The translations under genes were made by a program, and so were the position numbers. From Candidatus Binatia bacterium (GTDB taxonomy: Bacteria; Desulfobacterota; Binatia; UBA1149; CAITLU01): a stretch of 64,000 bases of DNA. The notes under the pieces are model-generated. The model did no database searches. It worked only from the letters and a program-made list of their open reading frames with translations, and was not told the DNA's origin. Below, in pieces: positions 33,001 through 64,000 of the stretch (the stretch's first letter is position 1; each line of letters opens with the position of its first letter). The DNA lies in the NCBI GenBank assembly GCA_036493895.1, contig DASXOZ010000070.1, forward strand, positions 38,868-102,867, read 5' to 3'.

Positions 33001-33963
33001 ATGAACACGTCCACCCGCTACCCGATGACGCCCTATCCGAACGGCTGGTTCCAGGTGGCCTACAGCGACGAGCTGGAAACCGGCAAGGCCGAGCCCCTGC
33101 ACTACTTCGGGCGCGATTACGTGCTGTACCGCGGCGAAGACGGTGCGGCGCGCGTGTTCGACGCGTTCTGTCCTCACCTCGGTGCCCACCTCGGCTACGG
33201 CGGCAAGGTCGACGGCAACAACATCCAGTGCCCGTTCCACGGCTGGCATTACGACGGCAGCGGAAAGTGTTTCGAGATACCGTACGGAAAGCGCATTCCG
33301 CCGTCCGCAAAGCTTCGCGCGCACCCCGTCGCCGAGAAGAACGGGCTGGTGATGCTGTGGCATCACGCCGGCGGAAAAGCTCCCGACTGGGAAGTTCCCG
33401 TCGTGCCGCAGTACGGCCTCGACGGCTGGACCCCGTACGTCAAGCGTCGCTGGAAGATCCGCACGCACAACCAGGACATGGCCGAGAACTCGGTGGACCA
33501 GGCCCACTTCCGTTACGTCCACGGCACCCTGACGGTTCCGCAGAGCCAGGCGACGACCGACGGTCCGTGCCTGCACGTGCTGTCGCAGATGAAGATGGGC
33601 ACGCCGGCAGGCGAGATCGACGGCAGCATCGAGTCGAAGTCCTGGGGCTTCGGTTTCGGGCAGGTGACGTTCCGCGGCATCGTCGAGACGTCGCTCGTCA
33701 CGTCGGTGACGCCGATCGACGGAGAGTACGTCGACGTGCGCTTTTCGTTCAGCGTCAAGAGCCTCGGCGACGAAAGGACGACGCGCGGGGTCGGCAAGGC
33801 GCTGATCGCCGACATCGACAAGCAGATGCGCGAAGACATCCCGATCTGGGAGAACAAGGCGTTCCTGGAAAGGCCGGTGCTGTGCGACGGCGACGGCCCG
33901 ATCGGCGTCTTCCGCACCTGGTGCCATCAGTTCTACAGCGAGGCGACCCCAGCCGCCGCGTAA
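33001..33963 (+). CDS. Rieske [2Fe-2S] non-heme-iron oxygenase, KshA-like class IA
   Basis: Rieske site CPHLGAHL..CPFHGW plus a mononuclear-iron catalytic domain. It is adjacent to kstR. Confidence 0.75.
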   Translation: MNTSTRYPMTPYPNGWFQVAYSDELETGKAEPLHYFGRDYVLYRGEDGAARVFDAFCPHLGAHLGYGGKVDGNNIQCPFHGWHYDGSGKCFEIPYGKRIPPSAKLRAHPVAEKNGLVMLWHHAGGKAPDWEVPVVPQYGLDGWTPYVKRRWKIRTHNQDMAENSVDQAHFRYVHGTLTVPQSQATTDGPCLHVLSQMKMGTPAGEIDGSIESKSWGFGFGQVTFRGIVETSLVTSVTPIDGEYVDVRFSFSVKSLGDERTTRGVGKALIADIDKQMREDIPIWENKAFLERPVLCDGDGPIGVFRTWCHQFYSEATPAAA

Positions 33964-46577: not shown

Positions 46578-47768
46578 TCAGGCTGCGCGCCGGTACATCG
46601 TGACGACGGCAGCGCCGCCGAGACCGAGGTTGTGCTGCAGCGCGACGTTCGCTCCGGTCACCTGGCGCTTGTCGGCCTGGCCGCGAAGCTGCCAGTTGAG
46701 CTCGGCGCACTGGGCGAGGCCGGTTGCTCCGAGGGGATGGCCCTTCGAGATCAGGCCGCCCGACGGATTGACCACCCACTTTCCGCCGTACGTGACGGCG
46801 CCCGTGTCGATCAGCTCTCCGCCCTTGCCGGGCTCGCACAGGCCGAGGCCCTCGTACGTGATCAGCTCGTTGCACGAGAAGCAGTCGTGCAGCTCGATCA
46901 CCTGCACGTCGTTCGGCGTCAGGCCCGACTGCGCGTAGACCTTCTCGGCGGCCTTCTTCGTCATGTCGGAGCCGACGAGCTTGATGCACGAGTGCTCGTC
47001 GAACGTGGACGGAAGATCGGTCGCCATCGCCATGCCGGCGATCTCGACGGCGGTCTTCTCGAGGCCGTGCTTCTTGACGAAGTCCTCGCTGGCGAGAATC
47101 GCCGCGCCCGCACCGTCGGAAGTCGGGCAGCACTGCAGCTTGGTCAGCGGCCCGTAGACAGTGGGCGACGCGAGGATGTCGGCGAGGGAGTACTCGTCGC
47201 GGAACTGCGAGTAAGGGTTGTTGACCGAGTGCTTGTGGTTCTTCTGGCCGATGCGCGCGAAGGACTCGGCGGTCGTGCCGTACTTCTCCATGTGCTCGAT
47301 GCCGGCATTGCCGAAGAACTGCGGCGCCCCGGGCGCGTTGGCGAAGCCGCGAAGCTGCACCATCTCGCCGAAGTGCTTGTCCATCGGGTTGGTGCGGTCC
47401 TGGAACTTCACGCCGAGGGAACCCTTCTCCATCTTCTCGAAGCCGAGCGCCATCGTGCAGTCGGCAAGGCCGCCCTCGATGAACTGCTTGGCCATGAACA
47501 GCGCCGTCGATCCCGTCGAGCAGTTGTTGTTGACGTTGTAGATGGGCACGCCGGTGATGCCGAGCTCGTAGATCGCGCGCTGTCCGGCAGTCGAATCGCC
47601 GTAGCAGTAACCGACGGCGACCTGCTCGATCTCGTCGAACGAGACGCCGGCGTCCTTCAGCGCGTTGGTGCCCGCTTCCCTGGCCATGTCGGGATAGTCC
47701 CAGGCCTTCGATCCGGGCTTCTCGAACTTGGTCATGCCGACGCCGACGACGAATACTTTCCTGCCCAT
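46578..47768 (-). CDS. SCP2/SCPx-type thiolase; the nucleophilic Cys is retained
   Basis: [13 protein letters not shown] and C-terminal [17 protein letters not shown] motifs. Start at Met 155 ([11 protein letters not shown]). Confidence 0.8.
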
Positions 47769-48150: not shown

Positions 48151-48648
48151 GTGGCCGAACAGATCGAGCTGACCGACGAAATGAAAGCCCAGATCGGCAA
48201 GCAGTCGCCGCCGTGGGACTTCGAAGTCACGACGACGAGCGTGCGGATGTTCGCGCGTGGCGTCGGCTACACCGACCCGGTGTACTACGACGTCGAAGCG
48301 GCCAGGCGCGCAGGCTACCGCAGCCTGCCGGCGCCGCCGACGTACCTCGGCACGGCAGTGTTCCTGCCCGGCCGCTGCAGCGACACGTTCAGCGGACCCA
48401 CCGAAGGAATCCCGTCGATCAACCACGGGTTGAAAGGCCTGCTCGACGGCGGCACCGAGACGGAATACTTCGATGCGATCTGCGCAGGCGACACGCTGGC
48501 CGCGCAGATCAAACTTGCCGACGTCAAGGTCGCTTCGAGCGCCGCGCTCGGCGGAAAGATGCTCGTCGTCACGGCCGTCACCACGTACACGAACAAGGCG
48601 ACCGGCAAGACGGCTGCCAGGCAGACCTCGCAGGTCATCTACTACTGA
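48151..48648 (+). CDS. MaoC-like/FAS1-like dehydratase N-terminal-type hotdog subunit (ChsH-like)
   Basis: GTG start with a GAAGGAGAAAG RBS. Hotdog fold without the hydratase motif. Confidence 0.65.
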
Positions 48649-48671: not shown

Positions 48672-49085
48672 ATGCTGAAATTCGACGAGATCAAGGAAGG
48701 CGACGCGATCCCCGAGCTTCGCAAGACCCCTACCCTGCAGCAGCTGGTCAAGTACTCGGCCGGCGGCGGGGACTTCAACCCGCTGCACCACGACTATTCG
48801 TTCCCGCAGGCCAAGCAGATCGGCTCGATCATCGTGCACGGGCGCTTCAAGTACGCCGCGCTCGGCGAGCTCGTCTCGAACTGGGTCGGTCATGCCGGGC
48901 GCATCGAGAAGCTGTCGTGCCAGTACCGCGGCATGGACCTGCCGGACAAGCCGTTCGTCTGCAAGGGCGTCGTGCGCAGGAAAACCAGCGAAAACGGCCG
49001 CAAGGCCGTCGAGCTCGACATCTGGGCCGAGAACGCCGAGGGCAAGAAGACGACTCCCGGATCGGCCGTCGTGGTGTTCCCCTAG
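48672..49085 (+). CDS. MaoC-like (R)-specific enoyl-CoA hydratase hotdog subunit (ChsH-like)
   Basis: Hydratase-2 motif GGGDFNPLHHD. Lies 23 nt after the preceding hotdog gene. Confidence 0.75.
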   Translation: MLKFDEIKEGDAIPELRKTPTLQQLVKYSAGGGDFNPLHHDYSFPQAKQIGSIIVHGRFKYAALGELVSNWVGHAGRIEKLSCQYRGMDLPDKPFVCKGVVRRKTSENGRKAVELDIWAENAEGKKTTPGSAVVVFP

Positions 49086-51580: not shown

Positions 51581-52216
51581 TCAGACGTCGCCCGGCGGAA
51601 TGAGCAGGTGCGAGACCTTGTGCAGGAACGCCATCTGGCGCGCCAGTCCGTCGCCCGACAGGGGGTCGACTCCGAACACCTGTCGCACAAGGGGAGCCAT
51701 CGCGAAGTAGCCGACGATCAGGTTCTGGAAACCGAGCAGCAACAGAGGCCACTCGTCTTCGGGCCATAGCTCGGCCGCGCGGCTGGAGCGCAGCGCATCG
51801 AGTCCCCGCTGGTAGACCGGCTCGAACCAGCGGCCGGCGATCCGGGCGAGGCGCTCGCCCCCGGCCAGGGTCTCGTAGTGGATCAGTTTGGCGAGATTCG
51901 GATTCCCGGCAAGGTGAAGGACGACACTGTCGATCGTCCTTTCTTCCCGGTCGCGCGTGCGGTCCCCCGCAGTCAGATCCGCGAGCATCTTGAGAACGGG
52001 CGTCAGGCCGCGTTCGAGCACCGCCTCGTAGAGCTCCTCCTTGCCGGCGAAGTGGTTGTAGAGACTGGCCGGGTTGAGCCCCACGCGGGCGGCGATGTCG
52101 CGCACCGGCGCGGCCCCCAACCCCTTTTCGGCAAACACCTGCTCGGCGGCATCCAGGATGCGCTCGCGGGTGGTCCGGACGTCGCCCGGCTCGCTCTGGG
52201 CCTGGCTGGCCGCCAT
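51581..52216 (-). CDS. TetR-family regulator (KstR2/FadR-like)
   Basis: HTH region RILDAAEQVFAEKGLGAAPVRDIAARVGLNPASLYNHFAGKEEL resembles KstR2. Confidence 0.7.
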   Translation of the reverse strand: MAASQAQSEPGDVRTTRERILDAAEQVFAEKGLGAAPVRDIAARVGLNPASLYNHFAGKEELYEAVLERGLTPVLKMLADLTAGDRTRDREERTIDSVVLHLAGNPNLAKLIHYETLAGGERLARIAGRWFEPVYQRGLDALRSSRAAELWPEDEWPLLLLGFQNLIVGYFAMAPLVRQVFGVDPLSGDGLARQMAFLHKVSHLLIPPGDV

Positions 52217-52308
52217 GGCCTAGACCCTCGCCCCGGGGATGCAGGCCAGGCCCAGGGCCACAAGCGCCTGCAGGAGGTCTTGCCGCGAAGCGTAAAATTT
52301 GTTAACCA

Positions 52309-52322
52309 ACGAACGTTCGTTC
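52309..52322. promoter_or_regulatory. 14-bp perfect palindrome AACGAACGTTCGTT about 95 nt upstream of the KstR2-like TetR gene
   Basis: Perfect dyad flanked by TTAACC and TGAACC. An AT-rich stretch GTAAAATTTGTTAAC lies next to it. Confidence 0.4.
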
Positions 52323-52391
52323 ATGAACCGCCCTCTGCAGAATTCCCTTTCTTCCCGCCCGGCTTCGGGGGTCGCCCCCGTTGGCGCTGCC

Positions 52392-53081
52392 TCACCCAGC
52401 GCCCACCCGTCCGGCTGCCCCGCGCAACAGCTGCTGGAAACGCTCCGCATCGACGGAAACGAAGACGCCCTGGGCCTCGGCCGTCACGGTATCGCCATCT
52501 CTCAGGGCCCCGGACGTGAAGATTTTGCGACCTTCCACGCGATCGACTCCCGCGTCAAAGCGAAGCTCTGCTCGAAGAGGCGTAGGACGCCGGTAGCGGA
52601 TCGTCAGCCCGGCAGTCATGCCGGGATTTCCCGTCAGCGTCTGTGCAAAGCCGAGCACTTCGTCGAAGGCCGCCGCGACGAAGCCTCCATGCACGTGACC
52701 CGGAGGACCTTCGTACGCGGCACCGAACACGACGCGGCCGGCGATGCGATCGCCGACCACCTCGAGCGACATCGGAGGCGACAACGGATTGGAAAGCCCG
52801 ATCAGCGGGCTCTGGTCGAAGAACGCTCCGGAGTTTCCCGAAACCGACGTCTCCGCATAGCCGGCGTGCCTGCTGCCGGAAGGCTGCGCACGCAGCCTGG
52901 CCGCCAGCGCAGCGGCCTCGTGCGTCGCGGCCGCGAGCTCCTCTTCGGATGCGTCGCTGCTGATCAGCGAGTCGATGATCTCGCGCAGAGCGGCAGCAAG
53001 GCGGCGCCGGTGCGCCCATGCTCCGGCAGCCGGCATCGACGCAGCTTCGAAATACAGGGGCTTGTTCCGTTCTTCTTCCAT
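52392..53081 (-). CDS. Hotdog-fold thioesterase (PaaI/4HBT-like)
   Basis: PPGHVHGGFVAAAFDEVLG motif. Start Met uncertain (53081 or 53036). Confidence 0.6.
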   Translation of the reverse strand: MEEERNKPLYFEAASMPAAGAWAHRRRLAAALREIIDSLISSDASEEELAAATHEAAALAARLRAQPSGSRHAGYAETSVSGNSGAFFDQSPLIGLSNPLSPPMSLEVVGDRIAGRVVFGAAYEGPPGHVHGGFVAAAFDEVLGFAQTLTGNPGMTAGLTIRYRRPTPLRAELRFDAGVDRVEGRKIFTSGALRDGDTVTAEAQGVFVSVDAERFQQLLRGAAGRVGAG

Positions 53082-53206: not shown

Positions 53207-54535
53207 ATGAGCATCACGCATCTCGACCTTTCCGATCCCGACTCCTTCGCCGGCGGATTCCCGCACGAGTACTTTCGCCGCCTGAGGCGCGAAGACCCCG
53301 TCCACTGGAACGATACGCGCCACGAAGTGGAGCGCAACGGCCGCGGATTCTGGGACATCACGAAGTACGAAGACGTCAAGATGATGTCGCGCAATCCGGC
53401 GCTTTTCTCGTCGTGGGAGGGCGGGACGAACATCTTCGAGCTCCACGGCGACGACCTCATCGGCTCGCGCTCGATGATGCTCAACATGGATCCGCCCCAC
53501 CACGTCAAATACCGGCGCCTGGTGGCGCACAATTTCACGCCGCGCATGATCGAGAGGCTCGAGGATCACATCCGCGACCTTGCGCGCGAGATCGTCGACG
53601 GCATGTGCGAACGCGGCAGCTGCGATTTCGTCGCCGACGTGGCCGCCTTGCTGCCAATGAAGACGATCATGGAAATCGTCGGCGTTCCCGAGGAGGACCA
53701 GCAGCGCCTGTTCGACCTCAGCAACAAGCTGGTCGGCTTCGACGACCCCGAGATTCAGGGTTCCTTCGACGAGGGGCGCATGGCGGCTGCCGAAGTCGCG
53801 ATGTACGGGCAGAAGCTCGCCGACATGGTCTCCGAGTGCCCGATGAACAACCTCGCCAGCGCGCTCTACCACGGCAAGGTCGACGGTCAGTCGCTCGATC
53901 CCCTGCAGTACAACTACTTCTTCCTCATGCTGATGGTCGCCGGCAACGAGACGACGCGCACGATGACCTCGCACGGAATGCGACTGCTCATCGAGAACCC
54001 CGCCGAGCGCCACAAGCTCGTCGCGGATCCCTCGCTCATCCCGAACGCCGTCGAGGAGTTCCTGCGCTACAACCCGCCCGTCATGTATTTCCGCCGCACG
54101 CTGACCGAGGATTTCGAGATTCGCGGGAAGACGCTGAAGAAAGGGGACAAGGTCGTGCTCTGGTACCCGTCGGCCAACCGCGACGAGGACGTCTTTGCCG
54201 ACCCGGACAGATTCGACGTCTCTCGCAAGATCGCCGAACACGTCGGGCTCGGCGTCGGCGAGCACTACTGCCTGGGCGCCAGCTTCGCCCGTGCCCAGCT
54301 GTGCTCGATCTTCACCGAGCTGCTGACGCGGGTGCCCGACATGGAACTGGCCGCCCCGATCCGCTACGTGCGCTCGAACTTCGTCCAGGGCATCAAGGAG
54401 ATGCCGGTGCGGTACACGCCGGCGCCGAGGACGGCCCAGGCGGCCGATCCGGGCGCGGCCTCCCTGCACGCCGAGGCGGCGGCCGCCGGATGCCCTTTCC
54501 ACCAGGAGAAGGCCCCCGAGCTGGTGACCGCTTAA
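53207..54535 (+). CDS. Cytochrome P450, CYP125/CYP142-like (sterol 26/27-monooxygenase-like)
   Basis: Blocks shared with M. tuberculosis CYP125: FWDITKYEDVK, MLNMDPPHH, LMLMVAGNETTR, heme loop GLGVGEHYCLG. Confidence 0.85.
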   Translation: MSITHLDLSDPDSFAGGFPHEYFRRLRREDPVHWNDTRHEVERNGRGFWDITKYEDVKMMSRNPALFSSWEGGTNIFELHGDDLIGSRSMMLNMDPPHHVKYRRLVAHNFTPRMIERLEDHIRDLAREIVDGMCERGSCDFVADVAALLPMKTIMEIVGVPEEDQQRLFDLSNKLVGFDDPEIQGSFDEGRMAAAEVAMYGQKLADMVSECPMNNLASALYHGKVDGQSLDPLQYNYFFLMLMVAGNETTRTMTSHGMRLLIENPAERHKLVADPSLIPNAVEEFLRYNPPVMYFRRTLTEDFEIRGKTLKKGDKVVLWYPSANRDEDVFADPDRFDVSRKIAEHVGLGVGEHYCLGASFARAQLCSIFTELLTRVPDMELAAPIRYVRSNFVQGIKEMPVRYTPAPRTAQAADPGAASLHAEAAAAGCPFHQEKAPELVTA

Positions 54536-54568
54536 CCGGGCGACCGGCAGCAGATACAGTGCCCGGTC

Positions 54569-54763
54569 ATGAAAGTCGTCGTCGATTACGACCTGTGCGA
54601 AGCCAATGCCGTCTGCATGCGCATCCTGCCCGACGTGTTCCAGGTGGATGACCAGGACAACCTGAACATCCTCATCGAACATCCGCCGGAATCGATGCGC
54701 GCCAAGCTCAAAGAGGCCGTGCGCCTCTGCCCTCGCCAGGCCATCTCGATCGTCGAGGACTGA
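54569..54763 (+). CDS. Small 3Fe-4S/4Fe-4S ferredoxin; P450 redox partner by position
   Basis: 64 aa with Cys motif (CEANAVC..CP), lying 34 nt after the P450 stop. Confidence 0.75.
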   Translation: MKVVVDYDLCEANAVCMRILPDVFQVDDQDNLNILIEHPPESMRAKLKEAVRLCPRQAISIVED

Positions 54764-54818
54764 GCTCGCACGCCGGCCTCTCGCAGGGGACAGGCCAGGG
54801 TCACGCCAAGGCCACCGC

Positions 54819-57254
54819 CTAGCGGCATTTCAGCGACGACGTTCCTTCCTGGCAGTCGGCGGCGGTGCCGCTTCGCACGACCGCGCTGTTGTGCAGCAGA
54901 TCGACCGTGACCGGCCCGGCAAACGGCGCCGCAATCGCAAGGCCGCGCATCGACACCTTGTACCTCACCGAGCTGCCACCCCGCACGAACGTCGCCCGGT
55001 AGTCGGACGTCGCGTCGCTCTCGTCACAGTTGATCTTGCCGCTGGCGGCCGTGGCGCAGCTCGAGAACGCATGGCTGACGTCCAGGGCCGCGTTGTCGCG
55101 CACTCGCACCGTGAACGGCGGCGGCGTGCTGAAATCGGGCGGCACGTCGAACGATCCGGCAACGTCGACGCGACCGTTGGCGGCGCCGACCTTCGTCTCG
55201 CCCTTGACCTTCACCTTGCCCACGCCGAGCGGGAACGACGCGAGCGTGGTGGTCGTCGTCGTGTTCGACGTAGTGGTGGTGGTGTCGGTGCTCGTCGTCA
55301 CGGTGATCGTCGTCGTGGTCGCTGTGCCGGGCGTGCAGGTGTCGTCGATGCCGACGGTGACGTCGGGCGCGAGCGCGTAGCCTTCCGGCAGCACCTTCGG
55401 CGACGGGCTCTGCACCTGGCCGGAGTCCGGTGCCTCGAGCACCGGCAGGCGCAGCCGAAGATTCGTCACGATGATCGGAAGCTGGCCGTTGGAATTGCGC
55501 CCGTACGGCTGGTCGGCCGGGAGCAGCTCGAGCTTGACGATGTGGCCGGGCGCGAAGCGCCATCCGTTGGGATGAAGCTGGAAGACCTGGCACGAGGCCG
55601 TCGTCGTATTGACCTCGGGACGGTAGAGCCCGCGCGCGACGAGAGTTTCCATGTTCGTCGACGGGTCGACGTCCTCGAGGCGCGCGGCAACCTGGGCCGT
55701 CGGTGACGGAGAAAGGAAATCGGCGACGATGGTCGCGGCGCCCATCAGCGTGAAACCTTCGCCCGACACCGCGCCGGTGCGATAGGTTGCCGCGCCGGTC
55801 TGGTCGTCGGCGTTGGTCGCCGCGCAGGCGCCGCTTCCGGTGATCGGATCGAAAGCCTGGCCGACGGTCGCATCGGTCGGGACGTCGTTCGCGATGATCT
55901 GCTGGGCCGCGCTCTCGACGCGCACTTCGCCCGGCGCGATCGCCTCCCAGTTCGCAGCCTGGTACGGCCCGGCCGACGGTCCGCCGCACACCTGCGTCGT
56001 CGTCTGCACGCCGAGGAACGGCGCCGGCCCCTCGCCCTTGACGTAGTAGTCGAACCAGTTGTGGAGCTGCGCATTGCGGAACGGCAGGTCCTCGGGCTTG
56101 TTCTGGCCGCGCTGGTGGCCGTGGTCGCCGAACATCATCGCGATCGGCGTGCCCGGATGATCGGTGCGCGTGCGGTTATAGAAACGGATCGCTTCGTCGG
56201 TCGGGAACAAGTCGTCGGTGAAGCCGTTGGAAATGAGCATCGGCGCCGGCGGCTCCGAATCGTCGATGTAGTAGCTCGAATGATGGCGCGTCAGCTCGTC
56301 GACGACGTCCTGCTCGACGGGGTTGCCGTCGTACGGCTCGCCGGCGTTGTCGACGGAATACCATTTGTAGAGATCGGCATCGGGATCGGCTCCGGGCGGC
56401 GCGTAGTTGCTGCCGGCTTCGCCGAGAGCGAAGAGGCCCGCGACGAACGACTGCTTGAGCACGCCTGCCCTGCCCCGCTTCAGGTAGGGAGCGTCGGCGA
56501 CGTAGTCGAGCGTGTGACCGTTCGGCTGCAGGGAGTTGGCCAGATCGGTCCACGGAATGTCCGGCTGCACCGCAGCCATCTTCATGGCCTTGCCGCCGGC
56601 GCTGACCCACGGCACGAGATAGCCGTCGAGATTCGGCGATCCCTCGTGCGCACCCATCATCTTGCGGTCTTTGAGCGCACCGAGCGCCATCGAGATGCCG
56701 CCGCCGTAGGAGCTTCCCATCGCGGCGATCTTCTGCGGGTCAACGAGGCCTTCGCCGGAAGTCGCGCCGGTGGCGGCCTGGTCGGCCAGCGCCTCGAAGA
56801 CCTGCTGGGCGTCGCGCACTTCGTAGCGCGTGTCCATCAGGTGGTTGTAATCGTTGTCGCAGACTCCGGGAGTCAGGCGCTTGCTGTCGGTCGCGCCGCA
56901 GGAGTTGCCCCAGCCGCGGTCGCTCATCGAGAAGACGGCGTAGCCGGCGTCGAGCCACTGCTGCATCGTCGGATCGGTGAGATCGAGTTTGGCGCCGCCC
57001 CAGCCATGGAAGACGCCGACGATCGGGAAGTTGCCGTCGGCGCCGCTGGCCGGAGCCGGCGGGAAGCCGACGTTGACGTCGATCGGCGCGCCGTCGAACG
57101 TCGAGAAGATGCCCGAGCAATGGCGCTCGCCGGCGTTGCCTCCGGCCTGGACGGTGCACGAGACGGCGCCGCCGAACAGGCCGTCGATCGTCGCCAGAGC
57201 GGGCGTGGCCGCACTGCAGAGCGAAACCGCGAGGATGGCCGCGAGCTTTTTCAT
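54819..57254 (-). CDS. Secreted alpha/beta hydrolase (CocE/NonD, S15-like) with a Thr-rich linker and a C-terminal beta-rich domain
   Basis: Signal peptide MKKLAAILAVSLCSAATPALA. Nucleophile elbow GSSYGG. Linker TATTTTITVTTSTDTTTTTSNTTTTTT. Confidence 0.7.
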   Translation of the reverse strand: MKKLAAILAVSLCSAATPALATIDGLFGGAVSCTVQAGGNAGERHCSGIFSTFDGAPIDVNVGFPPAPASGADGNFPIVGVFHGWGGAKLDLTDPTMQQWLDAGYAVFSMSDRGWGNSCGATDSKRLTPGVCDNDYNHLMDTRYEVRDAQQVFEALADQAATGATSGEGLVDPQKIAAMGSSYGGGISMALGALKDRKMMGAHEGSPNLDGYLVPWVSAGGKAMKMAAVQPDIPWTDLANSLQPNGHTLDYVADAPYLKRGRAGVLKQSFVAGLFALGEAGSNYAPPGADPDADLYKWYSVDNAGEPYDGNPVEQDVVDELTRHHSSYYIDDSEPPAPMLISNGFTDDLFPTDEAIRFYNRTRTDHPGTPIAMMFGDHGHQRGQNKPEDLPFRNAQLHNWFDYYVKGEGPAPFLGVQTTTQVCGGPSAGPYQAANWEAIAPGEVRVESAAQQIIANDVPTDATVGQAFDPITGSGACAATNADDQTGAATYRTGAVSGEGFTLMGAATIVADFLSPSPTAQVAARLEDVDPSTNMETLVARGLYRPEVNTTTASCQVFQLHPNGWRFAPGHIVKLELLPADQPYGRNSNGQLPIIVTNLRLRLPVLEAPDSGQVQSPSPKVLPEGYALAPDVTVGIDDTCTPGTATTTTITVTTSTDTTTTTSNTTTTTTLASFPLGVGKVKVKGETKVGAANGRVDVAGSFDVPPDFSTPPPFTVRVRDNAALDVSHAFSSCATAASGKINCDESDATSDYRATFVRGGSSVRYKVSMRGLAIAAPFAGPVTVDLLHNSAVVRSGTAADCQEGTSSLKCR

Positions 57255-57458
57255 GGCAGTCTCCGGAGGCCGGCCATTTTCGGCTCGGCACCTCCAGAAC
57301 TGACACGACAACGCTACTTACAGCAATGATAGTTACTGGGTTGTAAGCAAATTTCTGCCCCGATCGGGTGGAGCAGAACACGGTGAGTCTCCGCCGGATC
57401 GCTCACGGTAGTGCAAGCGCATAAGTTCAACTATATCAATATCTTCGAGGTATACTAT

Positions 57459-58271
57459 TCAGCGTCCCTTGAAGTTCGGCTTACGCTTTTCCTTGAAGGC
57501 CCTTGGGCCTTCCTTGGCATCCTCAGTCGAGAAAACTTCCATGCCGAGGCGCATCTCGAGCTCGCGGGCGTCGTCCTCTCGCATCCCGTCGGCCTCGAGC
57601 ACCGCGCGCTTGATGTTGCGCACGGCCACCGGGCCGTTCTCCGCGATGCGCGCCGCAATGGCGCGCGCTGTCTCCAGTGCCTTGCCGTCCGCAACGACGC
57701 GCCCGATGAGCCCCATCTCCAGCGCCTCTTTCGCGCTGTAATGGTCGCCCGTCAGCAGCACCTCCATCGCGCGCGTGAACGGGATCTGGCGCGGAAGCCG
57801 CGTCGTCGAGCCACCCTGGGGAAACAGGCCCCAACGCACCTCGGAGACGCCGAGCTTGCTGCTCTCGGCCGCTACCCGGATGTCGGTGGCCTGCAGGATC
57901 TCCACTCCGCCGGCGATGCAGGAGCCCTCGATCGCCGCGATCAAAGGCTTGATCGTGCGCTTCGAGCGCAGCAGGCCGCGGAAGATCACCTGGTAGTCGT
58001 CGCGGATCCTCTGTTCCCAGTCGTTCTCCGGCGGAAGGCCCTTGAGGGAGCGCGAGACGAGCTTGTCCAGATCAGCGCCGGCGCAGAAGTGACCGTGGGA
58101 GCCGGTGAGGATCGCGACGCGGATGTCGTCGTCGCTGTCGATGAGATCCCACGCGTCGGCCAGGCGGCAGATCATCTCCGGGTTGAGCGCGTTGCGCGCT
58201 TCCGGACGGTTCATCACGACCGTGACGACGTGGCCGTCGCGTTCGACTAGAAGCGCGGGTTGTTCGGACAC
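57459..58271 (-). CDS. Enoyl-CoA hydratase (echA19-like by context)
   Basis: Crotonase motifs (FCAGADL, AIEGSCIAGG). Confidence 0.8.
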   Translation of the reverse strand: MSEQPALLVERDGHVVTVVMNRPEARNALNPEMICRLADAWDLIDSDDDIRVAILTGSHGHFCAGADLDKLVSRSLKGLPPENDWEQRIRDDYQVIFRGLLRSKRTIKPLIAAIEGSCIAGGVEILQATDIRVAAESSKLGVSEVRWGLFPQGGSTTRLPRQIPFTRAMEVLLTGDHYSAKEALEMGLIGRVVADGKALETARAIAARIAENGPVAVRNIKRAVLEADGMREDDARELEMRLGMEVFSTEDAKEGPRAFKEKRKPNFKGR

Positions 58272-58342
58272 GACAGATCCTCCTGGTCGGATAGCGTCGC
58301 GAAGGCCGCATCGGCCGCTCGCGACGGCGGCAAAACGAGATT

Positions 58343-59962
58343 TCAGGAAGCCTTGGCCGCCTCACCCGCTGCGTAGCTTGCGGCCCAGCGGTAGTCGGGC
58401 TTGCCGCTCGGCTGCCTCTCGACGCGCTCGACGAAGCTCACGAAGCGCGGAACCTTGTAGCCGGCAACCTTGGTGCGGCAATGGCGGTCGAGGTCTTCGA
58501 TGCTCGCGGCTGCGCCGGGGCGAAGCTGCACGAGTGCCGCGACGCGCTGGCCCCAGCGCTCGTCGGGAATGCCGACGACGACGGCGTCGAGCACCCCGCC
58601 GTGGGCCTTCAGTGCTGCTTCGACTTCCTCGGGAAAAATCTTCTCGCCGCCGCTGTTGATGCACACCGAGCCGCGGCCGAACACGCGGATGCTTCCGTCG
58701 CTCTCGACGGTGGCAAGATCGCCGGGCATCACCCATCGCACGCCGTCGATCTCGAAGAAGGTTTTCGCCGTCTTCTCCGGGTCGTTGTAGTAGCCGACCG
58801 GAATGTGGCCGCGCCGCGCGAGCCGTCCGATGACGCCCGAGCCCGGCACCACGGGCTTCCTGTCGTCGTCGAACACGCAGTTGGTCTCGTTCATGAAGAA
58901 CAGCGGCTCCTTGCCGGTGCCGTGTCCGGTTCCCTGCATCATCGAGCCCTGGTGCCCGGTCTCGGTCGCGCCGAAGCTGTCGACGATCATCGTGTTCGGG
59001 AAAGCCTTGCGAAGCTGTTCCTTGACCGCTTCCGAAAGCACGGCGCCGGCCGAGCCGACTACGAACACCGACGACATGTCGACCTGGTCTCCCATCGCCT
59101 CCACTGCTTCGCCGAGCGGACGGGCCATCGCGTCGCCGACCAACGTCAGCGTGTTCACCTTCTCGTCGGCGATCAGGCGTGCGACGGTCTTCGGCTCGAA
59201 GCTCTTCCCACGCTGCAGCACGACCTTGCCGCCGCCGAAAAAGCCGATGAGCGAAGCCCATTCGGCGGCTCCGTGAATCAACGGCGCCGCAGCGAGAACC
59301 GTGAGCCCCATGCCGCCGCGCACGATGCCCTCGAGCTCTTCCCCTTTCGCGATCGGAGGTCCTCCCGGGTTGCCGCCCTGCAGCCCGGCGTAGAACACGT
59401 CCTCGTGCGGCCACATGACGCCTTTCGGCATCCCCGTCGTGCCGCCGGTGTAGATGATGTAGAGGTCCTTGCCGGAGCGCGGCGCGAAACCGCGCCCGGG
59501 GCTGCCCGCTGCGAGCGCGTCTTCGTATCGCACGGCGCCGGTGACGACGCGCTCGGCATCGCTCGTGTCCTCCACCTCGACGAGCGCCCGCAACTTCGGC
59601 AGGCGGGCGAGAAGCGGCAGCAGCCGTGAGCCGAGCTCGCGCTGGAAGAAGAGCGCCGTGACGTCGCTGTCCTTCAGCAGATACTCGAGCTCCTCCTCGA
59701 CGTAGCGGTAGTTCACGTTGACCGGTACCGCGCGAATCTTGAACGTCGCGAGCATCGCGACGAGGTATTCGTCGCAATTGTACAGGTACATGCCGACGTG
59801 CTGGCCGGGAGCGACCCCGCGATCCCGCAAAAAGTGCGCGAGGCGGTTCACCTGGGCGTCGAGCGCGGCGTACGAATAGCGCCGGCCGGCGCAAACGAGC
59901 GCTTCGCGCTCGGGAGCCGTGTCCACCACGAGCTCGAAAAGGTCGGCGATATTCAGCTCCAC
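58343..59962 (-). CDS. AMP-dependent acyl-CoA synthetase (fadD19/fadD3-like by context)
   Basis: YTGGTTGMPKGV AMP-binding motif. GTG start with a GAGGAGG RBS. Confidence 0.8.
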   Translation of the reverse strand: MELNIADLFELVVDTAPEREALVCAGRRYSYAALDAQVNRLAHFLRDRGVAPGQHVGMYLYNCDEYLVAMLATFKIRAVPVNVNYRYVEEELEYLLKDSDVTALFFQRELGSRLLPLLARLPKLRALVEVEDTSDAERVVTGAVRYEDALAAGSPGRGFAPRSGKDLYIIYTGGTTGMPKGVMWPHEDVFYAGLQGGNPGGPPIAKGEELEGIVRGGMGLTVLAAAPLIHGAAEWASLIGFFGGGKVVLQRGKSFEPKTVARLIADEKVNTLTLVGDAMARPLGEAVEAMGDQVDMSSVFVVGSAGAVLSEAVKEQLRKAFPNTMIVDSFGATETGHQGSMMQGTGHGTGKEPLFFMNETNCVFDDDRKPVVPGSGVIGRLARRGHIPVGYYNDPEKTAKTFFEIDGVRWVMPGDLATVESDGSIRVFGRGSVCINSGGEKIFPEEVEAALKAHGGVLDAVVVGIPDERWGQRVAALVQLRPGAAASIEDLDRHCRTKVAGYKVPRFVSFVERVERQPSGKPDYRWAASYAAGEAAKAS

Positions 59963-59972
59963 CGTTTCCTCC

Positions 59973-61130
59973 TCAGCGCTTTTCGGAGCCGACCATCCAC
60001 ATCGAGAAGAACTGGGAGCCGCCGCCGTAGGCGTGGCCGAGTGCCAGCTTCGCACCGGACACCTGGTGCTCGCCGGCGCGGCCGCTCACCTGCATCGCCG
60101 CTTCGGCGAAACGCAGCATTCCCGAAGCCCCGATCGGATTGGACGAAAGCACGCCGCCCGACGGATTGATCGGCATGTCGCCGTCGAACGCCGTGGCGCC
60201 TTCGAGCGTCATCTTCCAGCCCTCGTTCTCCGGCGCGAACCCGAGGTTCTCCATCCACATCGGCTCGTACCATGAAAACGGCACGTAGATTTCCGCGCAG
60301 TCGATGTCCTCGCGCGGATTGCGAACACCTGCCTGGCGGTAGACCGAGGCCGCGCACTCGCGGCCTGCGCGCGGATTGATCTGGTTGCGGCCGGGAAACA
60401 TCGTCGGCTCGCTCTTCATCGCGGTTCCAAGCACCCATGCCGGCTTCTTCGGCGTCTTCCTGGCGGCCTGCTCGTCGGCCAGCACCATCGCGCAGGCGCC
60501 GTCCGAAGACGGGCAGCACTCCAGATAGTGCAGCGGGTCCCACAGCAGCGGCGAGTTGGCGACCGTCTCGATGTCGATGTCCGGGAGATGCAAATGCGCG
60601 AACGGATTTCGCATCGCGTTCTTGCGGTCCTTGACTGCAACGCGAAGCCCGACGTCGGCCGGTGCCTTGGAGCGCTGGATGTAGGAGCGGATGATCGGTG
60701 CGAAGTACCCGCCGGCTCCGGCCACCAGCGGCGGCTGGAACGGGATTTTCGGCGTGATCGCCCACGTGGCCTCGCTCTCCGACTGCTTCTCGAACGCGAC
60801 GGTCAGCACCCGCGAGAACTGGCCCGACTGGACCAGGTGCGCGGCAACGAGCGCCGTCGAGCCGCCGACACTGCCGGCAGTGTGCACGCGGATCATCGGC
60901 TTGCCGACGGCGCCGAGCGCATCGGCCAGGTAGAGCTCCGGCTGCATGACGCCCTCGAACATGTCGGGGGCTTTTCCGATCACCAGCGCCTCGACGTCCT
61001 TCCACGAAAGGTCGCAATCCTCGAGAGCGGCGATCGCGGCTTCGCGCACCAGGCCGACCATCGAAAGATCGCCGCGCTTGGCGGCGTGGCGGGTTTGACC
61101 GACTCCGACGACGGCGCACCAGCGACCCAT
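59973..61130 (-). CDS. Thiolase-like protein lacking the nucleophilic Cys (Ltp/aldolase-type)
   Basis: Thiolase fold, but HTAGSVGGSTAL occupies the place of the Cys motif. RBS GGAGGGAGAG. Confidence 0.7.
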   Translation of the reverse strand: MGRWCAVVGVGQTRHAAKRGDLSMVGLVREAAIAALEDCDLSWKDVEALVIGKAPDMFEGVMQPELYLADALGAVGKPMIRVHTAGSVGGSTALVAAHLVQSGQFSRVLTVAFEKQSESEATWAITPKIPFQPPLVAGAGGYFAPIIRSYIQRSKAPADVGLRVAVKDRKNAMRNPFAHLHLPDIDIETVANSPLLWDPLHYLECCPSSDGACAMVLADEQAARKTPKKPAWVLGTAMKSEPTMFPGRNQINPRAGRECAASVYRQAGVRNPREDIDCAEIYVPFSWYEPMWMENLGFAPENEGWKMTLEGATAFDGDMPINPSGGVLSSNPIGASGMLRFAEAAMQVSGRAGEHQVSGAKLALGHAYGGGSQFFSMWMVGSEKR

Positions 61131-62197
61131 CACTCTCCCTCCAGGATGCAGACGAGGTTCTGTTGAAGACACGGTCCCGCGGTTGCGTGTGCGAGAGCGC
61201 GCCGTGCCTCGCCTTTGTGAACGCGCGAAGCTGCTTCGCCGATGCGGATCAGGCCCGCGACCATCATCGGATTGGCCGCCAGCGCGCCACCCGACGGATT
61301 GATGCGCGTCTTGCTGTCGAGTCCCAGCTCGCGCCGCAGAAGGATCTCCTGGTGCGTGAACGGAGCGTAAATCTCGGCGACGTCGATCGGCGCAGCCGAT
61401 ACGCCCGCCTTCTCGGCCGCGATCCGCGCCGACGGGCACTTGGTAAGGTCGCGCACGCCGAGGTTCTGGGCGTCGACGCGGTGGTCGAGGCCACGGATCC
61501 ACGCCGGCGTGCGGCCGTTCTTCTCGCAGAGGCCGCGCGCCACGTCACCGGCGGCCAGCACGATCGCTGCAGCGCCGTCGGAGATTGGCGGACAGTCGTG
61601 GCGACGAAGCGGCGAGGAGATGCACGGCTCGGCAAGCAGCGCGTCGACGGAGAAATCGCCGCTCAGCTGCGCGTACGGGTTTTGCCTAGCGTCGCGGCGG
61701 CTTCGCACGGCCACTTCGGCCATCTCGCGCTCGCTCGTGAGTCCGGCGTCGATCATCGCGCGGGCCTGAAGCGCGGCGACGCTGATCGAATCGGGCCACA
61801 GCGGCGCGACGAGGTAGGGATCGAGCTGAAGCGTCAGCACGTCGGGAAGATCGCCGACCGACGATTTGCCGAAGCAGAACACCAGAGCCGAGTCGATGTC
61901 GCCGTGCTGGAGGCGAGTGAACGCCTCGGCCATCGCCCAGGCTCCGTCCATCTCGACGTGCGATTCTTCGATCGGAGGCCAGGCCCCTACTCCGTCGAGG
62001 GCCATCACGAACGAGAATGGCACGCCGGCCAGGTAGTCGCAGCTTCCCGAGACGGTAAATCCGATGCGGTCGCGCGAAAGGCCGGACGCCGCCACCACTT
62101 CGGCAACCACCGGCATCAGGATCTCGACTTCGTTGCGAAGGATGTCGCGGCGCACCGAGCGCGCCTGCGCGAAGGAGACGACAGCGACTTCGCGCAT
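61130..62197 (-). CDS. Thiolase-like protein (Ltp3/Ltp4-type partner)
   Basis: Thiolase fold. TGATG overlaps at both ends. RBS AAGGAG. Confidence 0.7.
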   Translation of the reverse strand: MREVAVVSFAQARSVRRDILRNEVEILMPVVAEVVAASGLSRDRIGFTVSGSCDYLAGVPFSFVMALDGVGAWPPIEESHVEMDGAWAMAEAFTRLQHGDIDSALVFCFGKSSVGDLPDVLTLQLDPYLVAPLWPDSISVAALQARAMIDAGLTSEREMAEVAVRSRRDARQNPYAQLSGDFSVDALLAEPCISSPLRRHDCPPISDGAAAIVLAAGDVARGLCEKNGRTPAWIRGLDHRVDAQNLGVRDLTKCPSARIAAEKAGVSAAPIDVAEIYAPFTHQEILLRRELGLDSKTRINPSGGALAANPMMVAGLIRIGEAASRVHKGEARRALAHATAGPCLQQNLVCILEGE

Positions 62198-62709
62198 CAG
62201 AGGTGCTCCTTGAACGACTCGTACGTCGCGTCCGGTTCGCCGGTCGGCTTCATGTAGCGAATATTCTCGAGCGAAGGCTTGCGCTCGGAGGGCTCGCACC
62301 AGACGGCCTCGACGCGCATTCCCGGGCGAACTTCTTCGACCGGGCACTCGGCCAGCAGGCAGAAGAACGGCAGGTCGGCTCCGTCGAGCACCACCGACGC
62401 GCAAACGTAGGGAATCTCGACCGCCTGGCCGTAAAACGGAAGATTGACGACGCAGAACGTCGTCACGGTTCCCTTCGCCGAAAGCTCGACCTGCTCTTTG
62501 GTCGGGATCGCGCAGGTGGCGCAGGAGCCGCGCGGCGGCATGTAGACCTTGCCGCACTTCGGGCAGCGCTCGGCCAGGATGCGCCCTTCGAGGATGCCGC
62601 GAAGGAAGCGTGTCGGCGCCTCGCCCGGAGTGATCGTGTAATCGAGTCGCGACGGGATCGTCACCATCTTGATCGGATCGGGAAGCGGCCTTCCTTGCTG
62701 CGTGCTCAC
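62197..62709 (-). CDS. DUF35 protein with rubredoxin-like zinc ribbon and OB fold
   Basis: CPKCGKVYMPPRGSCATC zinc ribbon plus an OB fold. GTG start overlaps the upstream stop by GTGA. Confidence 0.7.
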   Translation of the reverse strand: MSTQQGRPLPDPIKMVTIPSRLDYTITPGEAPTRFLRGILEGRILAERCPKCGKVYMPPRGSCATCAIPTKEQVELSAKGTVTTFCVVNLPFYGQAVEIPYVCASVVLDGADLPFFCLLAECPVEEVRPGMRVEAVWCEPSERKPSLENIRYMKPTGEPDATYESFKEHL

Positions 62710-63176
62710 GACTTTGCCTCCGCCGGCTCGAAGCATTCGATGTCGGAGATCCCGCCCTTGCGCTCGGCGCGCCAGCGCACGCGCACGCGCATTCCGGTCT
62801 TCATCCGTTTTTCGTCTCCCGCATCGACGGCGTGCAGCAGCGACGTCGTCGCCCCGTCCAGCTTCACGAGCGCCCATGCGAACGGCTTCTGCAGCGGATG
62901 TTTCGCGCGCGGCGCCTCGACCCACGACCAGGTCGTCACGACGCCGGTGTCGCCGACGTCGAGCATTTCGGTCAGCGATTCGGTCGTCACCGGGTCGTAC
63001 TCGCTCGGCGGTACCAGCACCGAGCCGCCGGCGCCGCGGATGCCGAGGATGCGGCCTTCGCGCAGGCCGGCCAGAAAGGTGCCGATGACCCGGCCGACCG
63101 AGCGCGTATAGGGGTATTCGAGGGTGTGCACCGCCGAGAGCACGCCCTCGTAGTGCTTGAGCTTGTCCTGGCCCAT
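62706..63176 (-). CDS. DUF35 OB-fold protein (second copy)
   Basis: OB-fold DUF35 sequence. Start Met uncertain (63176 with GGAGG, or 63239). Confidence 0.6.
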   Translation of the reverse strand: MGQDKLKHYEGVLSAVHTLEYPYTRSVGRVIGTFLAGLREGRILGIRGAGGSVLVPPSEYDPVTTESLTEMLDVGDTGVVTTWSWVEAPRAKHPLQKPFAWALVKLDGATTSLLHAVDAGDEKRMKTGMRVRVRWRAERKGGISDIECFEPAEAKS

Positions 63177-63231
63177 GGTCCTCCGAAAAGCGGGGTCAGG
63201 CTCCGGCCCCCCGGACTCGCCTGACCCCGAC

Positions 63232-63245
63232 TGAAACATGTTCTA
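63232..63245. promoter_or_regulatory. Second KstR-type operator TGAAACATGTTCTA, 56-69 nt upstream of the DUF35-thiolase-fadD-echA operon
   Basis: Fits TnnAACnnGTTnnA and differs from the 32284 site at a single position. Confidence 0.55.
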
Positions 63246-63375
63246 CCGCCTTCTACACGGACCGGGATTCTCTGCCAACAGGGGTCCGGGCTGGTCCCTG
63301 ACCATTCCTGTGGTGCCTGACCCCATTCCTCTGGTGCCTGACCCCATTCCGTAAATGGAATGTTTCTGTCCTGGG

Positions 63376-64000
63376 CTAATCGAGTGACAACCAGAGACGG
63401 AGCAGGTGGCGGCGCTTGGCGGGCTGCGGCCAGTCTTCGTAGGCGGTGCGGGCGTGGACGATCGTGTGGTTGGAGATGAGCTGGATGTCGCCGGCCTCGA
63501 AGCTCATGTCGAGATAAAGGTCGGGCGACGCGGCGATCTCGTCGTAGAGATCCATCAGCTCACGCTCTTCGGCAGTGAATCGCGGCGCCGCGGCGTGACG
63601 CTCCACCGAGCGGAAGTAGTCGCTGTGCCAGAACGTGCGCAGGCTCGTGCCGTCGTAGCAGCACGGCTGCACCGGAACCCACGGCATGCTCTCGTTGCGC
63701 GCCTCGTCGCGCGTATCCAGCAGGAAGGTCCCGTACAGGCGCCGGACGAGGTCGGGACGGCGCCGCGACAGCTCGTCGTGCACGGCCACCGAGCTGGCGA
63801 TGCGGCTTGCGCCTCCGCTGCGCGCCGGCTGCAGGCACAGCAGGCCGACGACGTCGGCAAGATCGCAGTGGAACGCGATGTCGGCGGCGGTCCTGTACTT
63901 GCGCACGTACGGATTGGCAGAGTCCTCTCCGTAATCGCGCACGTGGCCGAGAAGCTCGTTCTGCGGATTCTGCGCTCCGGGCATTCCAAGATGGTGCCCG
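63376..64000 (-). CDS. TauD/TfdA-family Fe(II)/2-oxoglutarate dioxygenase; the N-terminus runs off the window end
   Basis: HCDLAD His-x-Asp metal motif and TauD-like C-terminus. The reading frame continues past 64000. Confidence 0.7.
   Translation of the reverse strand, partial: GHHLGMPGAQNPQNELLGHVRDYGEDSANPYVRKYRTAADIAFHCDLADVVGLLCLQPARSGGASRIASSVAVHDELSRRRPDLVRRLYGTFLLDTRDEARNESMPWVPVQPCCYDGTSLRTFWHSDYFRSVERHAAAPRFTAEERELMDLYDEIAASPDLYLDMSFEAGDIQLISNHTIVHARTAYEDWPQPAKRRHLLRLWLSLD

Follow-up and report, generated by a model that had tools for sequence, protein, structure and literature searches.

A KstR-type-regulated gene module, probably for sterol side-chain catabolism, in an uncultured Candidatus Binatia genome

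Gene content and organization of the locus

The DNA analysed here is a 64-kb stretch (hereafter the window) from the metagenome-assembled genome (MAG) of an uncultured Candidatus Binatia (Binatota) bacterium, and the subject of this work is a group of genes at positions 53207-63245 that resembles actinobacterial loci for breakdown of the sterol side chain. Because the G+C content of the window is 67%, genes were called with a codon-position GC model, after which the translations were read and compared with the Pfam and NCBIfam profiles. Following the plus strand, the interval holds a cytochrome P450 gene (g48), a ferredoxin gene (g49) and a hydrolase gene (g50), and then six minus-strand genes (g51-g56) whose ends overlap or are closely spaced. 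All the genes that a first-pass annotation of the same DNA had claimed for this interval were recovered where it had placed them, with Pfam confirming their domains. NCBI accessions are HEY2775501.1 for g54, HEY2775495.1 for g48 and HEY2775478.1 for g33, the last being a Rieske oxygenase encoded at some distance from the interval.

The six minus-strand genes begin with g56 (62706-63176), which has a ribosome-binding site (GGAGG) 5 nt 5′ of its ATG at 63176 and encodes a DUF35 protein consisting of the OB fold only, without a Zn ribbon (OB_ChsH2_C match in Pfam). The second gene, g55 (62197-62709, minus strand), encodes a DUF35 protein with both the Zn ribbon (C49, C52, C63 and C66) and the OB fold (zf-ChsH2 and OB_ChsH2_C). 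Both lie immediately upstream of two aldolase-like genes of the thiolase fold, with overlapping stop and start codons. That is, g55 is followed by g54 (61130-62197, minus strand), coding for the partner subunit, and by g53 (59973-61133, minus strand), coding for the aldolase-like subunit proper, and then by a FadD19-type acyl-coenzyme A (CoA) synthetase gene (g52, 58343-59962, minus strand) and an EchA19-type enoyl-CoA hydratase gene (g51, 57459-58271, minus strand). A terminator-like hairpin on the same strand (57353-57378), made up of a nine-pair stem and a T-rich tail, is located 81 nt past the g51 stop codon, and the operon is therefore taken to run from g56 to g51. No sigma-70 consensus promoter was found in a scan of 52.2-63.4 kb, a scan that is uninformative for the Binatia lineage.

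The first-pass annotation had put forward profile searches as a check on its proposal, and for four of the proteins these bore it out: g51, g52, g53 and g54 exceed the curated cut-offs of PRK07799 (363.6 bits; cut-off 316), PRK07798 (717.2 bits; cut-off 543), PRK08313 (660.7 bits; cut-off 514) and PRK07937 (539.1 bits; cut-off 419), respectively. We take these to be the models that fit mycobacterial EchA19, FadD19, Ltp3 and Ltp4. The matching of g53 to Ltp3 and of g54 to Ltp4 was made provisionally from protein lengths and gene order: Mycobacterium tuberculosis (Mtb) Ltp3 (Rv3523, ∼394 aa) is presumably of the PRK08313 type and Ltp4 (Rv3522, ∼354 aa) presumably of the PRK07937 type, with Rv3521 presumably being the DUF35 gene upstream of the ltp genes.

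A scan of species-representative genomes for relatives of g54 returned at least 414 genomes. Synteny was counted by tblastn with the window proteins over 83 loci (numbered with the prefix L), and operators and neighbouring genes were analysed in the best 80 of the at least 414. These best 80 g54 relatives listed are 61-86% identical and come from MAGs labelled as Binatia, Myxococcota/Deltaproteobacteria, Actinomycetota/Acidimicrobiia and Dehalococcoidia/Chloroflexota, together with one cultured Streptacidiphilus. The order DUF35(OB)-DUF35(Zn)-g54-g53 is kept in 75-82 of the 83 loci and in several phyla (the g55 type being present in 82 and the g56 type in 78), a gene arrangement that is far beyond chance. 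FadD19-type and EchA19-type genes occur in 45 and 33 of the 83 loci, respectively, and homologues of the P450 and of the g33 Rieske protein in 15 and 12.

Thiolase-fold proteins lacking the thiolase residues

When aligned with g42, a true thiolase encoded in the same window, both g53 and g54 are devoid of the nucleophilic Cys, the HDCF motif and the His of the GHP motif. The first-pass annotation had described one thiolase-like protein without Cys; the loss itself stands, but the number does not, as the catalytic Cys is missing from both. According to the family motif counts, the g53 type has an invariant HTAGSVGG (70 of 70) and an invariant Tyr in E-x-Y-V-P-F (again 70 of 70), and the corresponding motif of the g54 type is E-[LI]-[HY]-A-P-F, that is, with His or Tyr at the Tyr position. 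In TcLtp2 (YDHF) and CtSal (YDCY), the Tyr at the first HDCF-equivalent position is the catalytic base, and the aldolase dimers are flanked by two DUF35 domains (PMC12329534). Tyr283 of g53, in its EIYVPF motif, aligns with this catalytic-base position, and on sequence grounds g53 is likely to be the catalytic subunit of the aldolase-like pair. The presence of two aldolase-like genes and two DUF35 genes would fit a hetero-oligomeric retro-aldolase formed by g53-g56, by analogy with the Ltp2 and Sal complexes.

Like TcLtp2-ChsH2 and CtSal-CtShy, the proteins of the Binatia locus combine a thiolase fold without thiolase chemistry, a Tyr kept in the g53 type and DUF35 partners. They differ in several respects. 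The motifs are Y-V-P-F in g53 and [HY]-A-P-F in g54 instead of YDHF or YDCY, so that the proton donor must differ; TcLtp2 and CtSal are homodimers, whereas a heterodimer of two paralogues is predicted here; and the DUF35 proteins are free-standing, unlike ChsH2, in which DUF35 is part of a fusion with a MaoC hydratase. The Ltp2 model PRK07855 was passed by no protein of the window.

The Mtb Ltp3-Ltp4 (Rv3521-Rv3523) region also contains two adjacent SCP2-thiolase-fold genes preceded by a DUF35 coding sequence, with EchA19- and FadD19-type genes nearby and a KshA-family gene linked. Compared to the Ltp3-Ltp4 regions of Mtb and Rhodococcus, however, the host is a Binatia MAG and not an actinobacterium, and six genes are gathered in one compact operon. 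Moreover, DUF35 is split into two separate genes, one of them without a Zn ribbon, whereas the Mtb DUF35 gene is presumably a single longer open reading frame (ORF). The actinobacterial ltp3 and ltp4 genes have been described as encoding aldol lyases for C24-branched sterols, and fadD19 a steroid-CoA ligase (PMC6593523; also PMC10398937), with phytosterols inducing ltp3/ltp4 and fadD19 ∼70-100 fold (PMC6593523). The need for ltp3/ltp4 in the degradation of C24-branched sterols goes back to Wilbrink 2012, as that work is cited in PMC6593523 and PMC10398937.

A KstR-like repressor and two KstR-type operators

The operator consensus of mycobacterial KstR, TnnAACnnGTTnnA (PMC1995591), has two exact matches in the 64-kb window, against 0.13 expected. 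The first, TGGAACATGTTCTA at 32284-32297, is palindromic and lies 10 nt upstream of g32. The second reads TAGAACATGTTTCA on the minus strand (TGAAACATGTTCTA at 63232-63245) and is located 56-69 nt upstream of the g56 ATG, that is, in front of the six-gene operon. A search of the whole window for further boxes with up to two mismatches, including the regions before the P450 gene and g42-g44, gave only intragenic matches with two mismatches, which were therefore treated as noise.

The gene behind the first operator, g32 (32307-32921, plus strand), encodes a TetR-type repressor whose best NCBIfam match is the KstR equivalog NF033703; as the score of 123.7 bits is far under the cut-off of 280, the protein is called KstR-like and not KstR. 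It lies directly upstream of g33 (33001-33963, plus strand), the two genes forming a pair at 32.3-34.0 kb. The 320-aa product of g33 is a Rieske non-heme-iron oxygenase of the KshA family, with 160 bits to KshA5 (4qdc) and 127 bits to Mtb KshA; it retains both the CPH..CPFH motif of the Rieske cluster and the Fe ligands, and aligns across the catalytic domain. The KshA-like Rieske oxygenase announced by the first-pass annotation at 33.0 kb thus holds at the family level, but g33 shares only 30.9% identity with KshA5 and lacks ∼45 residues at the C-terminus, and the window contains no KshB gene.

Orthologues of g32 (45-53% identity) are found directly upstream of the DUF35 core in ∼17 related loci. 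Orthologues of g33 (41-61% identity) adjoin the core in ∼11 loci, and in L032 and L017 they are placed between a KstR-like TetR gene and the core. This TetR-Rieske-core order, together with the likeness of g32 to the TetR proteins encoded next to the core, indicates that g32-g33 represent a displaced part of the same module.

The operators also recur. In the 80 related loci (1.2 Mb), 85 copies of the consensus were counted against 2.85 expected from shuffles, mostly at promoter positions: upstream of the DUF35 core (18 loci, the site in front of the DUF35(OB) gene being occupied as in the window), of the KstR-like TetR gene (14), of EchA19-type (8), FadD19-type (4), P450 (3) and Rieske (3) genes, and of other catabolic genes (20). 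A tally per phylum, made by hand from the database taxon labels of the loci, placed a KstR box in 12 of 12 Binatia-type loci (5 labelled as Binatia and 7 as 'uncultured Myxococcales'), in 19 of 22 Myxococcota/Deltaproteobacteria loci and in 7 of 17 Actinomycetota loci. The arrangement resembles the KstR regulon of mycobacteria (Rv3574) in that an identical 14-bp operator precedes both the regulator's own gene and the side-chain catabolic genes, and in that the best family match of g32 is KstR. On the other hand, g32 is only distantly related to KstR, no more than two operators are present in these 64 kb, and the P450 unit appears to be associated with a different palindrome.

Two further features are located next to the operator of the operon. 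Three tandem copies of a 21-bp unit, CTGGTGCCTGACCCCATTCCT, are present at 63291-63350, between that operator and the stop codon of a gene for a TauD/TfdA-family Fe(II)/2-oxoglutarate dioxygenase, and could be a second regulatory site. The dioxygenase gene itself, just upstream of the operator, occupies 63376-63999 on the minus strand and L001:7833-8822 (329 aa in full); among the related loci, only those of the closest Binatia relatives (L004-L006) have a TauD/TfdA gene in the vicinity of the core, at a distance of several kb. Directly 3′ of the Rieske gene g33, g34 (34114-36636, plus strand) encodes an 840-aa polytopic membrane protein that has no Pfam or NCBIfam match and no homologue in the 80 related loci. 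By eye, its central soluble stretch looks like a Rossmann or spermidine-synthase-type fold (VLVIGVGGGID).

The P450/ferredoxin unit

The g48 product (53207-54535, plus strand) belongs to the CYP125/CYP124 clade of cytochromes P450. It aligns with the CYP125/CYP124/CYP142 hydroxylases over its full length and has the AGNETT motif of the I-helix and the heme Cys loop; here a small ferredoxin gene adjoins. Its best PDB match is 8vxi (458 bits, 51.6% identity), that is, CYP125MRCA, which is a reconstructed ancestor and not a natural sequence. CYP125MRCA hydroxylates cholesterol, phytosterols and vitamin D3, and the rule for P450 families asks for at least 40% identity to a named member (PMC12100521). 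As g48 is just under this value with respect to both CYP124A1 (39.6%) and Mtb CYP125A1 (38.2%), it may by nomenclature represent a sister family. The CYP125-like P450 of the first-pass annotation therefore stands as to clade and heme loop, but only at these lower identities to CYP125A1 and CYP124A1. The automatic IMG name of g48, cholest-4-en-3-one 26-monooxygenase, is an annotation only. In other phyla, the P450s linked to the core share 59-62% identity with CYP125MRCA and 40-47% with CYP125A1 and CYP124A1.

The ferredoxin that had been assigned to the P450 is indeed present: g49 (54569-54763, plus strand) adjoins g48 and encodes a single-cluster protein of 64 aa (Fer4_15, Fer4_13 and Fer4_19 in Pfam), which is presumed to be the redox partner of g48. 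Ferredoxins of the g49 type occur with the P450 or with the core in 12 loci. On the other side of g48, a gene for a hotdog (4HBT) thioesterase-like protein (52392-53081, minus strand; PF03061 is recorded for the identical gene in L001) also adjoins the P450/ferredoxin unit in L008, L026, L011 and L079, with 44-66% identity. It is followed by g47 (51581-52216, minus strand), which codes for a second TetR regulator (TetR_N in Pfam; generic TetR matches only in NCBIfam). Orthologues of g47 adjoin the P450/ferredoxin unit in L005 (83% identity), L008, L018 and L081, that is, the regulator travels with the P450/ferredoxin/hotdog unit in these loci. Upstream of g47, at 52301-52328, lies a 28-bp palindrome (GTTAACCAACGAAC/GTTCGTTCATGAAC) that is unrelated to the KstR box and is probably the operator of g47. 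The P450 unit thus appears to have its own TetR and a different palindrome.

Recurrent neighbours in the related loci

The ORFs of the related loci were clustered without prior assumptions, and 30 recurrent clusters were annotated. The most frequent neighbours are TetR proteins with KstR as their best family match (19 loci), PRK07831-type short-chain dehydrogenases/reductases (17) and NMO-family proteins (15), followed by PimC/PimD- or IpdE2-like acyl-CoA dehydrogenases (10-15 loci each) and an aldehyde dehydrogenase (9). Furthermore, the FadA5 equivalog 'steroid 3-ketoacyl-CoA thiolase' (692 bits; cut-off 515) and an Ltp2-type aldolase (659 bits; cut-off 469) are each encoded in 7 loci.

Proposed function of the module

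The central claim of the first-pass annotation, an actinobacterial-style locus for sterol or branched-lipid side chains in a non-actinobacterial genome, is upheld by the scores of g51-g54, the KstR-like repressor and the two perfect KstR operators. Its suggestion that this may be an undescribed system is not: its genes have homologues among those known from mycobacteria and rhodococci, and as a characterised or named actinobacterial counterpart exists for each component, the locus does not represent a system of a new kind. The novelty lies in the Binatia host, in the repressor-operator pair conserved outside Actinobacteria, and in the breadth of the module among uncultured lineages.

We favour, with moderate confidence, the reading that the locus serves to break down the alkyl side chain of sterols under KstR-type control, the most likely substrates being 24-alkyl sterols of plants, algae or sponges. 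This reading builds on the family memberships, the loss of the thiolase catalytic residues, the operators and the conserved synteny observed above; the chemistry, subunit arrangement, inducer, substrate and order of steps outlined here are extrapolated from Rhodococcus, Mycobacterium and the Ltp2/Sal work. The P450 g48, together with the ferredoxin g49, would oxidise the terminal methyl group of the side chain towards a carboxylic acid, and the FadD19-type ligase g52 would form the CoA thioester. An acyl-CoA dehydrogenase encoded outside the window would then introduce the 2,3 double bond, to which the EchA19-type hydratase g51 would add water, giving a tertiary alcohol in the case of a branched beta-carbon. 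A tertiary alcohol cannot be oxidised to a ketone, and the next step would therefore be a retro-aldol C-C cleavage by a heteromeric thiolase-fold aldolase. This step would release a short acyl-CoA, with g53 contributing the invariant Tyr as base, g54 acting as its partner, and g55 and g56 serving as flanking scaffolds. In the characterised systems, the substrate with such a branch at the beta-carbon of its side chain is a 24-alkyl sterol. As for regulation, the KstR-like g32 would repress the g56-g51 operon and the g32-g33 pair via the two TnnAACnnGTTnnA operators, and a CoA-thioester intermediate would presumably lift this repression.

A number of observations weigh against this reading. Within the locus itself, g32 scores far under the KstR equivalog cut-off, g51 reaches 345.9 bits against the EchA19 equivalog NF051848 and is thus below the cut-off of 400, and g48 is as close to CYP124, which is annotated as a methyl-branched lipid omega-hydroxylase, as to CYP125A1; no KstR box was found at the P450/ferredoxin unit. 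The window and the 8 kb past its right edge contain no acyl-CoA dehydrogenase pair, carboxylase, FadA5 or Hsd4A gene, and no ChsH1/2-Ltp2, KstD, Hsa or sterol transporter gene. Genes for ring degradation (KstD, Hsa) are likewise missing among the 30 annotated recurrent clusters of the 80 loci. Moreover, the KstR box is found in 0 of the 19 Chloroflexota loci (L009, L013, L018, L019, L028, L030, L038, L040, L042, L048, L056, L061, L063, L065, L081 and others), and these have no g32-like TetR either. The Chloroflexota/Dehalococcoidia loci carry a g47-like TetR instead, while keeping the same core, the FadD19/EchA19-type genes and the P450 (and, in L081, the FadA5 equivalog). An exchange of the regulator from one phylum to another seems to have taken place. 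Finally, the biochemical role of Ltp3/Ltp4 reportedly rests on genetics in one Rhodococcus strain, and we know of no enzymology of Ltp3/Ltp4.

Alternative explanations

The main rival to a sterol side-chain function is that the same module acts on non-steroid methyl-branched or isoprenoid lipids (isoprenoid acids, hopanoid or terpenoid side chains, branched alkanes) and that the likeness to KstR reflects ancestry only. It is left open by the CYP124-like similarity of g48, with its nearly equal identities to CYP124A1 (39.6%) and CYP125A1 (38.2%), and by the lack of ring-degradation genes in the window and among the annotated recurrent neighbours. Furthermore, the first description of the KstR regulon presented it as one for lipid degradation (PMC1995591), the WS/DGAT, the two PlsB paralogues, the SCP2 thiolase and the MaoC pair encoded in the window would suit a general lipid metaboliser, and for SAR202-type Chloroflexota and Acidimicrobiia a general role in degrading recalcitrant alicyclic or branched organic matter has been discussed (PMC5395668). 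Nonetheless, all the characterised homologues of the core genes (ltp3/ltp4, fadD19, echA19 and KstR) are tied to sterols, the FadA5 enzyme at equivalog level and the Ltp2-type steroid aldolase are encoded beside the core in several loci, and ∼11 loci have a gene for a KshA-family oxygenase linked to the core. By our own reasoning, moreover, an omega-oxidised regular isoprenoid would have its methyl branches at the alpha position and would need no retro-aldolase, whereas a 24-alkyl sterol would. We judge a non-steroid substrate unlikely, though well worth keeping in view.

It is less probable still that the module remodels or turns over endogenous sterols, or salvages side-chain carbon only and leaves the rings intact, without being part of a full mineralisation pathway. 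Sterol biosynthesis clusters have been reported from sponge microbiomes, in Binatia as well as in several other classes with this module, such as Dehalococcoidia and Acidimicrobiia (PMC9531527), no ring-cleavage genes were seen near the module, and metagenome surveys detected no hsaC outside Actinobacteria and Proteobacteria (PMC5790920). However, there is no sterol biosynthesis gene in the window or its flanks, and the repressor and operators, set up like those of the catabolic KstR regulon, speak for an inducible catabolic function; we judge this second rival improbable.

It is very hard to maintain that g53-g56 form a BbsAB-type benzoylsuccinyl-CoA thiolase, or an archaeal complex of the HMG-CoA synthase/thiolase/DUF35 type, with no relation to lipid side chains. 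Fold and DUF35 partners are indeed shared with such systems, and there are weak matches to BbsB, BbsA and PDB 7pxp, but the scores (BbsB, 117.6 bits for g53 and 51.5 bits for g54, cut-off 750; BbsA, 27.1 bits, cut-off 250) are far under the Bbs cut-offs while PRK08313 and PRK07937 are passed, the nucleophilic Cys on which thiolases and HMG-CoA synthases depend is missing from both g53 and g54, and the surrounding genes are of the FadD19, EchA19 and CYP125 types and come with KstR boxes. Best matches of the Bbs type, which the first-pass annotation had named as evidence that would count against it, were accordingly not obtained, and a BbsAB or archaeal thiolase-HMGCS-DUF35 identity was rejected on account of the low Bbs scores and the missing Cys.

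Distribution and significance

The side-chain part of the actinobacterial sterol pathway, together with its repressor/operator logic, is thus present in an uncultured Binatia genome, and relatives occur in hundreds of species-level genomes of at least four phyla. Predicted aerobic steroid degraders have been confined to Actinobacteria and Proteobacteria in surveys based on ring-cleavage markers (PMC4810484, PMC5790920), and the present distribution suggests a capability well beyond these two documented phyla. We found no literature linking Binatia or Binatota to steroid or sterol degradation, only the sterol biosynthesis clusters of sponge-associated Binatia (PMC9531527). CYP125-type P450s had been reported earlier for SAR202 and marine Acidimicrobiales (PMC5395668, PMC10205998). 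With the six-gene operon and its two operators, there is now something concrete on which to test whether SAR202-type and similar bacteria attack sterol-like organic matter, as has been proposed. On a wider scale, it is conceivable, and we put it forward tentatively, leaning slightly to doubt, that KstR-type-regulated catabolism of branched sterol side chains is not restricted to actinobacteria but widespread in largely uncultured phyla, namely Binatota, Myxococcota, Acidimicrobiia and other Actinomycetota, as well as Chloroflexota (with another regulator), the DUF35-DUF35-aldolase-aldolase core being carried by at least 414 species-level genomes. In that case, these organisms would make up a so far overlooked sink for sterols from plants, algae and sponges in soils, sediments and the ocean, and may either remove the side chain only or use a ring pathway other than the 9,10-seco route on which surveys have relied.

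If sterols are the substrate, then the range of organisms known to handle phytosterols and algal sterols in the environment widens, the KstR regulon would have its origin outside Actinobacteria, and a large and diverse set of Ltp3/Ltp4-type aldolase complexes becomes available that is relevant to steroid biocatalysis. To our knowledge, no structure or enzymology exists for complexes of this type.

Accessory candidates and other genes of the window

Upstream of the P450 unit, at 46.5-49.1 kb, the first-pass annotation had recognised a chsH1/chsH2/ltp2-like set, which did not survive closer inspection. The g42 product (46578-47768, minus strand) is a true thiolase of the SCP2 type-1 (Ltp1-type) family, with 668 bits to PRK08256 (cut-off 436) and 628 bits to 6hsj. 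It keeps NNNCSTG, HDCF and GHP, and reaches only 80 bits to the Ltp2 structure 6ok1 and 126.7 bits to PRK07855 (cut-off 469). The two MaoC-type hydratases, g43 (48151-48648, plus strand, 165 aa) and g44 (48672-49085, plus strand, 137 aa), have weak HadA/HadB matches; in PDB the pair matches HadB with 44 bits and ChsH1/ChsH2 with 22 bits (E ∼1e-3), and it carries no DUF35 domain. An igr-type ChsH1/ChsH2/Ltp2 identity of g42-g44 was therefore rejected, given the PRK08256 match and the kept Cys of g42 and the lack of DUF35 in the MaoC pair. It is possible, though, that g42, g43 and g44 are accessories of the module: an 80%-identical homologue of g42 adjoins the core in L073, and a g44-like gene is found beside the P450 in L022. 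Another thiolase, encoded just past the right edge of the window (L001:6634-7824), was considered as FadA5 and rejected, its score being 413 bits with PRK07850 (cut-off 515).

The hydrolase gene g50 (54819-57254, minus strand), which the first-pass annotation had left unmentioned, sits between the EchA19-type gene and the ferredoxin gene. It encodes a secreted alpha/beta hydrolase of 811 aa (Peptidase_S15, AXE1 and CocE_NonD matches) with a signal-peptide-like N-terminus, a long Thr-rich linker and a Cys-containing C-terminal domain. None of the 80 related loci has a homologue, not even those of the Binatia relatives with 85% identity, and the gene is present only on the window's own contig. 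Judging from this pattern, g50 is probably a lineage-specific insertion outside the module; a role as a steryl-ester or lipid esterase would be pure speculation.

The Gram-negative-type backbone that had been claimed for the window was confirmed, with genes for Lnt, SecD, SecF, YajC, an AAA_22/SPOR protein and PlsB (two paralogues), to which Tgt and NusA can be added. The PlsB paralogues belong to a cluster for neutral-lipid and phospholipid assembly at 4957-7509 (minus strand), 36640-38079 (minus strand), 38092-40536 (minus strand) and 40622-42082 (plus strand), which consists of the PlsB/GPAT paralogues g6 and g36, a WS/DGAT (g35; 411 bits to TIGR02946) and a fusion of a HAD-phosphatase with a PlsC-type acyltransferase (g37). 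The PlsB/WS-DGAT/PlsC combination suggests storage of wax esters or triacylglycerols, in keeping with a lipid-centred metabolism. Finally, the predicted protein of g11 (11360-12193, minus strand) starts with a run of PD[IV]LP pentapeptide repeats (MPDILPDIVPDVLPDILPDILPDVLPDVLP...).

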